Origin: Shigella phage Sf14
Direction: 5' to 3' (one strand)
Sequence record: MF327003
Length of the DNA: 64,000 nucleotides
A program made the translations under genes and the position numbers. Shown here in pieces: positions 9,385-10,868 of the stretch (position 1 is the first letter of the stretch; the number at the start of each line of letters is the position of its first letter). The notes under the pieces were generated by a model. The model searched no databases. It had not been told where the DNA came from and saw only the letters and a program-made list of their open reading frames with translations.

Positions 9385-10134
9385 TCATGCAGTTACCTGA
9401 ACTTTTGCTTGGTGAGAAGTTACAGAACCTACAGCGTTTGTTACAACGCAATCATAATTACCGTCATCAGCAGTTGTTACACTTGCTTTGGTATATGTTG
9501 CAGAAGTCGCACCTGAGATATTGCTGTTACCTTTTCTCCACTGGTAACCAGTTGCACCAGTTGCAGTGATACTGATTGTTAGTGTCTGACCAACTGTTAG
9601 GTCTTGGTCTTGTGGCTGAACCGTAATGACTGGAAGTGGGTTGATTGTCACAGTTGCTGCATTTGAAGTTACAGAACCTACAGCATTTGTTACGACACAC
9701 GTATAGCTTCCTGCGTCAGTTGTCTTAGCATTTGCTTTTGAGTAAGTTGCAGATGTTGCACCTGAGATATTTGTACCATTCTTCTTCCACTGATAGCTTG
9801 TCGCTCCAGTTGCAACCACGCTTAGTGTTAGTGTGGAACTTTCATTAACAGCTTTGCTAGTTGGTTGTGTGGTGATTACTGGAAGCGGGTTGATTGTAAT
9901 AACTGCTGCATCAGATGTTGTAGAGCCTACATCATTTGTTACTACGCACGTATAGCTTCCTGCATCTGCTGGTACAGCGCCAGCCTTAGTATACGTAGCT
10001 GAGGTTGCACCTGAGATATCTGAACTACCCTTCTTCCACTGGTAGCTTGTTGCATTTGTTGCCACAATGCTGAGATTAATTGCTGAACCTTCATTAACTG
10101 CGCCACCAGTTGGTTGTGTGGTGATTACAGGTGG
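9385..10134 (-). repeat. three tandem ~258-bp coding repeats (Ig-like domain units)
   Basis: repeat periodicity visible at protein and nucleotide level. Confidence 0.7.
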
Positions 10135-10503
10135 TTGTGCAGAGTCTTTAAGTTTTGCATTCAGCATCGAGAAGGGTTTCACTCTTGCAAGCCATTCACA
10201 ATAAACTGTATCAACATCCTTCCCATTGATGATTGCATACTGCAAGTCCATGAAGAAGTCAGCAGTCCTCATCTGAGCACCAACTGAATATAAAAGTTCT
10301 TCACTAAATGGAACTGTGTAGTCTGGTGTGTAATTGAAGTCAGTAACTTCTGGAATATCAGACTCAGGCCACGGTGAGCTATATGTCAGAGGCAGAACAG
10401 CCTCCTGATACTTTCTGAAGTCGTATCTTTTGCCAGCTTTAACATTCGCTACAAAATCCTTAACGAACTCTTTAAAATCTGGATATGTCTTTGCTTTAAT
10501 CAT
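9385..10503 (-). CDS. protein with N-terminal domain plus three tandem Ig-like domains
   Basis: three ~86-aa repeats each with YQWKK..SGATSATY..G.Y.CVVTN motif. Confidence 0.7.
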   Translation of the reverse strand: MIKAKTYPDFKEFVKDFVANVKAGKRYDFRKYQEAVLPLTYSSPWPESDIPEVTDFNYTPDYTVPFSEELLYSVGAQMRTADFFMDLQYAIINGKDVDTVYCEWLARVKPFSMLNAKLKDSAQPPVITTQPTGGAVNEGSAINLSIVATNATSYQWKKGSSDISGATSATYTKAGAVPADAGSYTCVVTNDVGSTTSDAAVITINPLPVITTQPTSKAVNESSTLTLSVVATGATSYQWKKNGTNISGATSATYSKANAKTTDAGSYTCVVTNAVGSVTSNAATVTINPLPVITVQPQDQDLTVGQTLTISITATGATGYQWRKGNSNISGATSATYTKASVTTADDGNYDCVVTNAVGSVTSHQAKVQVTA

Positions 10504-10868
10504 TTCTTAGCCTCTAATCTTGCGTTTAGTCTAAAATAACCTTTGTGCTGCGGTGAAACATCACCTACAACAACTCCGTCAATCTTATAGCCTTTACCCA
10601 TCACATATTGAATATCCATCAAGAATGTACCAAGACCAACAATATGAAACATCGGGTAAAGAAGTTCTTCAGTATCTGGTAGAGGAATTTTAGGTGTGTA
10701 TTCGAAATATGTTTCGGTAGGGTTGATATCCTTCTCAGGCCATTTGCTATCACGCCATGTTAAGGGTGTCGGAAGTACATCATCAAGATTATACCTGTCA
10801 CCTTCTTGAACACTTTGGACATAAGATTGTAGGAAGCAATAAAAGTCTTTTCCACTCTTTGCCTTCAT
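10500..10868 (-). CDS. paralog of the N-terminal domain of the Ig-like protein, without Ig repeats
   Basis: shared motifs (DFY/DFK..F..V..GxRY, EELLY, FxMDxQY) with residues 1-120 of adjacent gene. Confidence 0.6.
   Translation of the reverse strand: MKAKSGKDFYCFLQSYVQSVQEGDRYNLDDVLPTPLTWRDSKWPEKDINPTETYFEYTPKIPLPDTEELLYPMFHIVGLGTFLMDIQYVMGKGYKIDGVVVGDVSPQHKGYFRLNARLEAKK

Follow-up and report, generated by a model that had tools for sequence, protein, structure and literature searches.

Gene organization of the locus

The window (the whole 64,000-nt stretch of Shigella phage Sf14 DNA analyzed here) carries on its minus strand a three-gene cassette flanked by terminator-like hairpins. It consists of a 122-aa ORF (10500-10868), a 372-aa ORF (9385-10503) and, as the last gene, a GH24 endolysin (8912-9376; PF00959, E-value 1.8e-38), whose start codon lies 8 nt past the stop codon of the 372-aa ORF, in agreement with the original prediction, which had placed an Ig-like protein next to the endolysin. 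Inspection of the sequence revealed a terminator-like GC hairpin with a T-run between an upstream 196-aa ORF and the 122-aa ORF (10891..10904, minus strand) and another terminator-like hairpin, with a 10-bp stem followed by TTTTATTT, directly 3' of the endolysin (8882..8905, minus strand). The terminator table of phage Felix O1 lists a terminator at the equivalent place, between ORF38 and ORF37 (PMC3185647), and this entry matches the Felix O1 intergenic sequence. A scan of the region 3500-12800 for sigma-70 promoters showed no enrichment (23 sites vs 24.8 expected).

The order of the three genes is kept in Sf16, Sf13, Silverhawkium, Bas63, Felix O1 and one divergent metagenomic contig. Identity to Sf16 is 98.7-99.4%, and the region of the Sf16 HNH gene has no match in the window. 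The gene of the major capsid protein (24905..26008, plus strand; 100% identity to PDB 9c2d_A) is located ~14.4 kb from the 372-aa ORF, on the opposite strand and beyond a tRNA cluster, and the earlier remark that the Ig protein is encoded far from the morphogenesis genes was therefore correct.

Phage Ig domains are often added by programmed frameshift. A frameshift that would fuse the 122-aa ORF to the 372-aa ORF was considered and rejected, since a TAA in the frame of the latter, two codons before its ATG, leaves almost no room for such an event, and no slippery heptamer was found. The virion proteome of Felix O1 lists the homologous product, gp36, with a mass of 31.6 kDa; this is consistent with an unfused 294-aa protein and also argues against a frameshift (PMC3185647).

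The 372-aa protein and its capsid-binding domain

The 372-aa protein, composed of a 124-aa N-terminal domain followed by three Ig-like domains, is the Hoc-like hexamer-center decoration protein of Ounavirinae phages, known as gp20 for Sf14 and as Hex-Dec for Bas63 (the latter name is used below for the whole family). Its sequence exhibits 100% identity over 372 aa to chain S of PDB 9c2d (also 9c3a), the structure of the Sf14 capsid, and the four-Ig Bas63 chain 9ncf_S is matched with an E-value of 1e-213. This is not a discovery: the structure, the location and the copy-number variation of Hex-Dec were published in 2025. Mass spectrometry identified Sf14 gp20 in the particles, where it was located at the hexamer centers, with one Hoc-like monomer per pentamer-proximal hexamer (60 in the T=9 capsid; PMC11821841), which bears out the earlier proposal of an Ig protein displayed on the virion surface. 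The capsid-binding domain (CapBD), defined as the N-terminal 118 aa of gp20, is mostly helical and inserts into the Asp-lined center of the hexamer, where R79 and R107 form salt bridges with D221 of the capsid protein; gp20 is restricted to the quasi-3-fold hexamers and does not occur in the 20 that lie on true 3-fold axes (PMC11821841). The same distribution was reported independently for Bas63 Hex-Dec, and in neither of the published reconstructions were the Ig domains resolved (PMC11821841, PMC12609058). The Felix O1 ortholog gp36 was likewise found in virions, with 44% peptide coverage (PMC3185647), and its orthology to Hex-Dec was confirmed here by gene mapping. The original mass spectrometry of Sf14, together with a 15 Å map, is reportedly due to Doore et al. 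(2018).

In the window the CapBD (aa 1-124) is encoded by 10132..10503 (minus strand) and is 100% identical to 9c2d_S, a model in which just ~120 N-terminal residues were built (target length 120). Both R79 and R107 are present in the protein, and D221 is found at residue 221 of the major capsid protein in the alignment to 9c2d_A. In a set of 44 Hex-Dec orthologs the conservation is 100% for R79 and 98% for R107. AlphaFold2 performed poorly for residues 1-120 (pLDDT 30-59), as it did for the Sf14 authors (PMC11821841), for which reason the interface residues were taken from that publication. The exhaustive profile search returned 13 clusters only among 1.84 billion representatives; thus, the CapBD fold is confined to this group of phages and has no informative distant homolog.

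The Ig repeats

The presence of three Ig-like domains, as originally proposed, was confirmed by Pfam, which identified three Ig stretches in the 372-aa protein (Ig_3, E-value: 6.6e-31; Ig_2, 1.3e-24; I-set, 1.4e-23), and by AlphaFold2, which predicted residues 125-372 as three all-β units (pLDDT 94-97). The matches reported by Foldseek among viral models are Ig-domain phage proteins. All three units are encoded on the minus strand: unit 1 (aa 125-207; 9883..10131; Pfam Ig_3 and I-set, pLDDT ~95, all-β), unit 2 (aa 208-290; 9634..9882; Pfam and AlphaFold2), which shares 73% aa and 75% nt identity with unit 1, and unit 3 (aa 291-372, followed by the stop codon at 9385-9387; 9385..9633; Pfam and AlphaFold2), whose aa identity of 56-60% to the other two makes it the most diverged. 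The period of the repeat is 83 aa, or 249 bp, and not ~86 aa and ~258 bp as first estimated. TRF reported a period of 249 with 2.0 copies at 9629-10128 and 75% matches; it left out the third unit because of its nucleotide identity of only 59% to unit 1 and 64% to unit 2. Similarly, the motif YQWKK..ISGATSATY..G.YTCVVTN, previously given for all units, is matched exactly by units 1 and 2, but only approximately by unit 3, with YQWRK...NYDCVVTN.

Relatives of the 372-aa protein have from one to four Ig units (PMC12609058, PMC11821841), in line with the suggestion that the repeat number could vary by recombination. The genes of Felix O1 (two units) and Bas63 (four units) differ by exactly 498 bp, i.e. 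2 x 249 bp, and the register of their alignment switches within the conserved GATGYQWKK core (nt 700-715 of the Felix O1 gene), which together constitute the signature of an in-register unequal crossover. Judging from this comparison of the two genes, the number of 249-bp units changes by in-register unequal recombination; the crossover signature is what the present analysis adds to the copy-number variation already published.

With a pI of 7.0 and a net charge of 0, the Ig string encoded in the window is neutral, in contrast to the acidic strings of its relatives (net charge -14 in Bas63, -10 in Felix O1 and -6 in Sf13, which has two units). The analogy to T4 Hoc suggests that the Ig domains may form a flexible surface fiber for weak adhesion or for clustering of virions; here as in the literature, a role in adhesion or pH sensing would rest on this analogy. 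The pI of T4 Hoc is 4-5, as opposed to the neutral string of the Sf14-type protein, and because of this neutrality the T4 model of pH-dependent clustering may not be transferable to the Sf14-type variant.

The upstream paralog of the capsid-binding domain

The 122-aa protein (10500-10868, minus strand), which corresponds to Sf16 gp26, Felix O1 ORF37 and phrog_4463, comprises a CapBD without any Ig domains. The original prediction had regarded it as a paralog of the N-terminal domain of the Ig protein, and BLASTP agrees (38% identity over 123 columns, E-value 2e-19). Reciprocal cross-matches of the PHROG profiles of the paralog and the CapBD gave values of 1e-15 to 1e-16, one of them 3.1e-15, and a phmmer search of the PDB with the paralog reported 9c2d_S (E-value 1.5e-13); by these sequence criteria the homology is far beyond chance. 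Foldseek analysis of a weak model of the paralog (mean pLDDT 62.6) identified 9c2d_S and 9ncf_S as the best matches (TM-score 0.67, probability 1.00), with no further match under E = 1. Across the paralog and CapBD families 28 columns are invariant, and many more positions are conserved within the paralog family only. The arginines that anchor the CapBD to the capsid are absent from the paralog, in which the positions of R79 and R107 are occupied by G78 (98%) and Q107 (91%) among 47 sequences. This loss is not decisive, since some Ig-bearing homologs also lack R79 (Gly in the Hafnia protein, Asp and Ser in P0104 and P0105).

Of 251 related genomes, 231 (~92%) carry the paralog, as an intact ORF mostly 122-124 aa long in Felixounavirus, Mooglevirus and SUSP phages; a divergent metagenomic lineage has it with 48% identity and in an unchanged gene order. 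The outgroup phages phiEa21-4 and Zyzzx (from Hafnia) lack it. In the phylogenetic tree the paralogs form one clade and the CapBDs another, each with 100% bootstrap support and with a shared internal topology, which points to a single old duplication; accordingly, the paralog descends from one ancient tandem duplication of the CapBD. Its dN/dS values range from 0.07 to 0.16 (Bas63 vs Felix O1: dN 0.081, dS 0.726, ω 0.11), and it evolves ~10x faster than the CapBD itself (dN 0.081 vs 0.007 for the same pair). In phages REP12 and Z31 the gene has been reduced to a remnant by a 226-bp internal deletion, with the start codon gone, and the spacing is equally shortened in REP6, fBSPA4 and P54; four of the five phages retain an intact Hex-Dec, and the lineage that lost the paralog comprises ~20 sequenced phages. 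As this lineage deleted the paralog with Hex-Dec left intact, the gene is taken to be dispensable, and we conclude that it is under purifying selection, yet probably dispensable.

The TGA stop codon of the paralog overlaps the ATG of Hex-Dec as ATGA (10500-10503), and the paralog has a conserved Shine-Dalgarno sequence; its translation is coupled to that of Hex-Dec via this overlap. In Felix O1, ORF36 and ORF37, i.e. Hex-Dec and the paralog, were both transcribed late, with a maximum at 60 min according to RT-PCR (PMC3185647). The list of Felix O1 structural proteins does not include the paralog, even though that analysis picked up proteins of 9.7-13.7 kDa (PMC3185647), neither does Table 1 of the Sf14 virion proteins (PMC11821841), and the main text on phage VpaE1, whose virion set is given there as differing from that of Felix O1 by gp54, gp58 and gp68 only, suggests that its paralog (ORF40c) is missing as well; small or low-copy proteins can escape mass spectrometry. 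Our phmmer search found no PDB chain that corresponds to the paralog, and it is absent from both cryo-EM models, in which symmetry averaging would smear a monomer located on an icosahedral 3-fold axis. We therefore regard the paralog, with low confidence, as an accessory protein that is absent from the virion or, at most, transient. A term search of the Sf14 and Bas63 structure papers (PMC11821841, PMC12609058) returned no mention of the paralog in the text covered, and the nature of this small neighboring gene as an ancient and conserved duplicate of the CapBD is apparently the only detail of the locus that has gone unreported.

Interpretation and alternative explanations

Hex-Dec identity of the 372-aa protein, recombination among its Ig units and an upstream paralog that arose as an ancient duplicate of the CapBD are, taken together, the best explanation of the locus, in which we have high confidence. 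Essentially nothing speaks against the Hex-Dec identity, apart from the labels "tail protein" and "tail fiber protein" carried by dozens of database records (phrog_3995 is named "tail protein") and the name "major tail protein" given to Felix O1 gp36 (PMC3185647). The chance that the Ig protein is indeed a component of the tail or tail fiber, as stated in most GenBank records and in PHROG 3995, is practically nil, given that the identical sequence was built into capsid density at 3.2 Å, that the Bas63 ortholog was also modelled on the capsid, and that the Felix O1 name was based on detection in the virion and not on localization (PMC3185647). These labels go back to Felix O1 gp36, from which they were carried over as legacy annotation, and should read "capsid decoration protein". 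The cassette shared with the endolysin could alternatively indicate that Hex-Dec and the paralog act in lysis, as a cell-wall-binding or lysis-timing module; Ig-like domains are able to bind carbohydrate, and the gene order is conserved, with hairpins at the flanks. We find this highly improbable: Hex-Dec is a virion protein, the paralog possesses no transmembrane or signal segment (maximal Kyte-Doolittle mean of 1.2 over 19 residues), in phiEa21-4 a terminator stands between the decoration gene and the endolysin, and the Felix O1 lysin peaks at 25 min, compared to 60 min for ORF36 and ORF37 (PMC3185647).

As to the role of the paralog, we speculate that it may act at the stage of assembly, on the centers of capsomers or on the loading of Hex-Dec, and not as a second stable decoration. 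It could be an unrecognized partner of the decoration system that controls the place and the density of Ig-fiber loading, either transiently in the hexamer centers of the prohead or at sub-stoichiometric amounts on the 20 three-fold hexamers, where averaging hides monomers; we consider this proposal unlikely. Distinctly unlikely, in our opinion, is that the paralog serves as a second, Ig-less hexamer-center protein, which caps the 20 true 3-fold hexamers or competes with Hex-Dec and thereby sets the density of the fibers. The shared fold (according to the weak model) and the 38% identity, the late expression and translational coupling to Hex-Dec, and a surface that differs exactly at the anchoring arginines would all suit such a protein, as would the displacement of the partner Asp221 residues in the 3-fold hexamers (PMC11821841) and the blurring of a monomer on the 3-fold axis expected from the icosahedral averaging in both structural studies (PMC11821841, PMC12609058). 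However, it is missing from the virion lists of Felix O1, Sf14 and, as far as the main text tells, VpaE1, it has no corresponding PDB chain, and the second decoration protein of Sf14 was observed at the quasi-3-fold hexamers only, also in the 4.5 Å asymmetric map (PMC11821841). A decaying duplicate devoid of function would be compatible with the faster evolution relative to the CapBD and with the deletion in the ~20-phage lineage, which had no visible effect on Hex-Dec, but this interpretation is disfavored by the dN/dS values, and the intact, length-conserved ORF in the 231 genomes and in the lineage at 48% identity, the columns invariant in both families plus the paralog-specific conserved positions, and the conserved Shine-Dalgarno sequence and ATGA overlap make it very improbable. 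If the partnership in fiber loading were true, Hex-Dec would be the first decoration protein to be regulated by a free-standing duplicate of the domain that anchors it. The paralog, being conserved, late, translationally coupled to Hex-Dec and not found in virions, constitutes together with the natural deletion lineage a well-posed system for the study of site choice by decoration proteins in Sf14 and Bas63.

Comparison with known systems

T4 Hoc resembles Hex-Dec in being a non-essential hexamer-center monomer with an outward string of I-set-like Ig domains, whose number varies among relatives. The order of domains is however reversed, with the CapBD at the C-terminus of Hoc and at the N-terminus of Hex-Dec, and Hex-Dec differs from Hoc also in that it assumes one orientation and occupies only 60 of the 80 hexamers. 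The topology of Hex-Dec has been described as distinct from that of Hoc (PMC12609058). The "Hoc-like" PHROG matches (phrog_4069 and phrog_2973) cover the Ig region 123-290 only, with no similarity outside the Ig domains. Hex-Dec works like Hoc, yet it is not a member of the Hoc family. To our knowledge, no stand-alone paralog of the CapBD is known in T4.

Phage T5 pb10 shares with Hex-Dec the N-terminal capsid-binding domain, a C-terminal Ig-like domain and the binding to hexamer centers; it differs by having a single Ig domain, and its sequence similarity to Hex-Dec is confined to this domain. The PDB chains 5lxk_A and 8zvi_a, named "Decoration protein" and presumably of the pb10 type, match Hex-Dec residues 206-290 only.

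Within Ounavirinae, gp38 of phiEa21-4 and gp85 of Hafnia phage Zyzzx have homologous CapBDs (31-38% identity) and their genes also adjoin the endolysin, but, unlike in the window, with no CapBD-only paralog upstream. According to its annotation phiEa21-4 gp38 is a "conserved structural protein" of the virion, as Hex-Dec is a virion protein; its display domain is of the Big_2 type in the GenBank annotation, as opposed to the I-set type of Hex-Dec.

The closest counterparts are Sf14 gp20, from which the window's protein does not differ at all (nor does its capsid protein partner), and Bas63 Hex-Dec, which shares the N-terminal CapBD and the Ig string. Both are encoded at the same genomic place, between an ORF38-like gene and the endolysin. 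Bas63 Hex-Dec has four Ig units that form a strongly acidic string, whereas the protein in the window has three and is charge-neutral, and this contrast between the neutral Sf14-type string and the acidic ones of related phages is a natural test case for the "acidic fiber / pH-sensing" model put forward for T4.

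Anatomy of the decoration cassette

ORF calling on the minus strand revealed three closely packed ORFs within 8912-10868: a 122-aa ORF that comprises only a capsid-binding domain (CapBD) (10868-10500), a 372-aa ORF coding for Hex-Dec (10503-9385), whose ATG overlaps the upstream TGA as ATGA, and a 154-aa ORF (9376-8912), which starts 8 nt past the Hex-Dec stop and, in agreement with the original prediction of an endolysin neighbor, encodes a GH24 enzyme (PF00959, E-value 1.8e-38). A hairpin scan found terminator-like structures bracketing the cassette on the same strand, at 10904-10891 and 8905-8882. 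The leftward block that includes the cassette runs divergently from a 471-aa ORF (12570-13985, plus strand), labelled DUF2828-containing in Sf16 and RNA-binding protein in Felix O1, which is the last protein gene ahead of a large tRNA cluster.

The Pfam analysis of the 372-aa protein identified the three Ig-like domains that had been proposed (Ig_3, E-value 6.6e-31; Ig_2, 1.3e-24; I-set, 1.4e-23). Anchoring of the unit boundaries on the PVIT motif places them at residues 125-207 (Ig1, 9883-10131), 208-290 (Ig2, 9634-9882) and 291-372 (Ig3, 9388-9633), all on the minus strand, with a period of 83 aa or 249 bp. TRF reported 2.0 copies of period 249 with 75% matches over 9629-10128, and the repeat of 86 aa/258 bp claimed originally has to be corrected to these values. 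Ig3 falls outside the TRF repeat because it is too diverged (59-64% nucleotide identity to Ig1 and Ig2). AlphaFold2 modeled residues 125-372 as three all-beta units (pLDDT 94-97), and the Foldseek search against viral models matched the Ig region to Ig-bearing phage proteins, so the Ig fold holds at the level of structure prediction. The N-terminal 124 aa (the CapBD) are, as had been suspected, paralogous to the adjoining 122-aa protein (38% identity, E-value 2e-19; reciprocal PHROG cross-hits of 1e-15 to 1e-16).

Identity and annotation of Hex-Dec

The 372-aa protein belongs to the Ounavirinae Hex-Dec/gp20 family, and is in fact the same protein: all of its residues are identical (100%) to those of chain S of the PDB entries 9c2d/9c3a, from the capsid reconstruction of Sf14 (PMC11821841), and an E-value of 1e-213 links it to chain S of 9ncf (460 aa, four Ig units), from that of Bas63 (PMC12609058). 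The major capsid protein (24905-26008) is 100% identical to chain A of 9c2d and retains D221, hence the published structural context applies directly. Sf14 gp20 was found in particles by mass spectrometry (PMC11821841). It attaches to the capsid in monomeric form, via the N-terminal 118 aa and in one orientation only, at the center of the pentamer-proximal (quasi-3-fold) hexamers of the T=9 capsid; there is one monomer per asymmetric unit, and thus 60 copies, and hexamers that lie on true 3-fold axes carry none (PMC11821841, PMC12609058). It is anchored by R79 and R107, which form salt bridges with residue D221 in the major capsid protein (PMC11821841). The Ig domains were not resolved in the capsid reconstructions and are predicted only (PMC11821841, PMC12609058). 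The mass spectrometry and the capsid structure of the identical protein (PMC11821841) support the original interpretation of a virion-surface Ig protein, a feature that was already known and solved. Hexamer-center anchoring and virion presence were demonstrated by others on the identical sequence, and the present analysis shows the domain anatomy and the Ig fold, the paralogy and the one old duplication, the purifying selection, the natural deletion and the crossover junction.

Over 8900-11600 the sequence does not differ from that of Shigella phage Sf16 (100% identity; genus Mooglevirus, species Mooglevirus Sf14), whose annotation calls the 372-aa product (gp25) "tail protein" and the 122-aa one (gp26) "hypothetical protein". 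Felix O1 gp36, confirmed as the Hex-Dec ortholog by gene mapping, was detected in virions in 2010 with 44% peptide coverage and named "major tail protein" (PMC3185647); the "tail protein" label that persists in GenBank and PHROG 3995 probably stems from this name. The window as a whole is not an exact copy of Sf16: identity is 98.7% over 5021-15404 and 99.4% over 17049-31646, nothing in the window (near 15404-15889) matches the Sf16 region that holds the HNH homing endonuclease (gp31), lying amid tRNA genes, and no phage record is at least 99% identical to 2500-6000. The annotation of Z31 (2998-3570 of the compared locus) divides Hex-Dec into pieces of 134 aa and 55 aa, and in Shigella phage vB_SflM_004 (record H27) its region carries three features labelled "tail protein", including an 82-aa fragment (P0096). 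Either sequencing errors or real pseudogenization of a decoration gene that is not essential could account for these fragments.

Variation of the Ig string

Relatives carry 1-4 Ig units (PMC11821841, PMC12609058), and our comparison of copy numbers gave the same range, with protein lengths of 210 aa for one unit, 294-298 aa for two, 372-377 aa for three and 460 aa for four. The Felix O1 gene (two units, 1656-2540 of its locus) is shorter than the Bas63 gene (four units, 3869-5251) by exactly 498 bp, i.e. 2x249 bp, and at nt 700-715 of the Felix O1 gene, within the conserved GATGYQWKK core, the register of their alignment jumps from +0 to +498. The Ig2 unit of Felix O1 is therefore chimeric: its N-terminal half corresponds to that of Bas63 Ig2 and its C-terminal half to that of Bas63 Ig4. 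This pattern is the exact footprint of an in-register unequal crossover between 249-bp units and bears out the idea that recombination alters the repeat number. The Sf16 and Sf13 genes are 87% identical in the first 526 nt and strongly divergent beyond, which indicates that Ig strings are also exchanged or fast-diverging, beyond a mere change in number.

The CapBD-only paralog: distribution and history

The residual novelty lies in the paralog and, to a lesser extent, in the neutral Ig string. The paralog appears to be the sole undocumented part of the finding: a text search of both structure papers (PMC11821841, PMC12609058) revealed no mention of it or of a duplication, and its family, PHROG 4463, has no assigned function. 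The tblastn search matched 251 records, all from phages closely related to Felix O1, Moogle or the SUSP phages; 231 of them contain an intact paralog at 60% identity or more, and the remaining 20 match through the Hex-Dec CapBD only (~34% identity). An exhaustive profile search yielded only 13 clusters among 1.84 billion representatives, hence the CapBD fold is confined to this group of phages. On a divergent 87-kb metagenomic contig the ORF38-like gene is likewise followed by the paralog, then Hex-Dec and the endolysin, and the paralog there is only 48% identical to that of Sf14. In the outgroups Erwinia phiEa21-4 and Hafnia Zyzzx the ORF38-like gene is directly followed by the CapBD-Ig gene, with no paralog between them.

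Neighbor-joining separated the paralogs from the CapBDs of the same phages as two clades, each with 100% bootstrap and with mirrored internal topologies, which indicates a single old tandem duplication; its placement relative to phiEa21-4 and Zyzzx has 50-52% bootstrap. The paralog is a real gene under purifying selection (dN/dS 0.07-0.16 for pairs with unsaturated dS), with a constraint about tenfold weaker than that of the CapBD (Bas63 vs Felix O1 dN: 0.081 and 0.007, respectively). A 147-kb record of "Staphylococcus phage SA1" (GU169904.1, H142) also contains a Felix O1-type Hex-Dec (CapBD identity 86.7%) and paralog, and the VpaE1 authors report a 99% match of ORF40c, the paralog in that phage, to SA1; GU169904.1 is probably a chimeric or contaminated assembly.

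Possible role of the paralog

According to RT-PCR in Felix O1, ORF36 and ORF37 (Hex-Dec and the paralog) peak at 60 min, as do the portal, sheath, tube, baseplate and fiber genes, and their neighbors on either side, ORF35 (lysin) and ORF38, do so at 25 min (PMC3185647). A strong terminator-like hairpin ends ~20 nt ahead of the paralog start codon in Sf14 (10868-10904), leaving no space for a sigma-70 promoter, and a terminator is listed at the equivalent site upstream of ORF37 in Felix O1 (PMC3185647). A stable low-copy virion protein is improbable in our estimation: the paralog is missing from the Felix O1 virion list, which includes proteins of 9.7-13.7 kDa (PMC3185647), from Sf14 Table 1 (PMC11821841), from the PDB chains and, apparently, from the 22 virion proteins of VpaE1, a set that differs from that of Felix O1 only by gp54, gp58 and gp68. 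Both arginine anchors are conserved in the 44 Hex-Dec sequences (R79 in 100%, R107 in 98%), and the equivalent positions of 47 paralogs are G78 (98%) and Q107 (91%), which suggests at the sequence level that the paralog does not share the capsid-binding mode of Hex-Dec. The loss of arginine is however not decisive, because the R79 position is Gly in the Ig-bearing Hafnia homolog, Asp in P0104 and Ser in P0105 (both CapBD homologs).

The aligned loci of REP12 (1609-1800) and Z31 (2806-2997) retain a 192-bp paralog remnant lacking the start codon, with a 226-bp internal deletion corresponding to nt 73-298 of Felix O1 ORF37; in REP6, fBSPA4 and P54 the flanking genes likewise lie 192 bp apart. 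Four of the five phages keep an intact Hex-Dec (293-294 aa), so the paralog is required neither for plaque formation nor for Hex-Dec retention. An intact paralog is missing in about 20 records, and this Felixounavirus sub-lineage represents a natural knockout. The P54 record (PV390658.1, Escherichia phage vB_EcoM_P54) is assigned to Straboviridae; Tevenvirinae; Tequatrovirus, has a Felix O1-like 88-kb genome and cassette locus, and is probably misclassified.

We tentatively regard the paralog as a late, non-virion accessory protein, which may act transiently on capsomer centers or on Hex-Dec loading. By our rough personal estimates, such a transient, assembly-stage or regulatory role falls somewhat short of an even chance, and an unrelated new function is rated just as likely. 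A duplicate devoid of function is very improbable.

Charge of the Ig string and comparison with known decoration proteins

The Ig string of Sf14 (9388-10131) is charge-neutral (pI 7.0, net 0), and that of Silverhawkium is near-neutral as well (pI 6.6). The strings of Bas63 (net -14), Felix O1 (-10), REP12 (-9), a metagenomic phage (L007, -8) and Sf13 (-6) are acidic, with pI 4.1-4.4. T4 Hoc (pI 4-5) resembles the acidic strings of Bas63, Felix O1, REP12 and Sf13, unlike the neutral one of Sf14, which bears on whether the pH-dependent clustering model fits the Sf14 variant. By analogy with T4 Hoc, the Ig string may serve in weak adhesion or clustering.

The CapBD anchor appears to be a general display scaffold. 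Among its distant homologs, the metagenomic P0105 (153 aa) has a Lys/Ser-rich, probably disordered tail and no Ig domain, and P0103 and P0104 each end in one C-terminal domain whose sequence type is different. Hex-Dec works like T4 Hoc, yet it is not a member of the Hoc family: the domain order is reversed and the CapBD is topologically distinct (PMC12609058), and the similarity is confined to the Ig domains (PHROG). Similarly, T5 pb10 has an architecture in common with Hex-Dec, with similarity in the Ig domain only.
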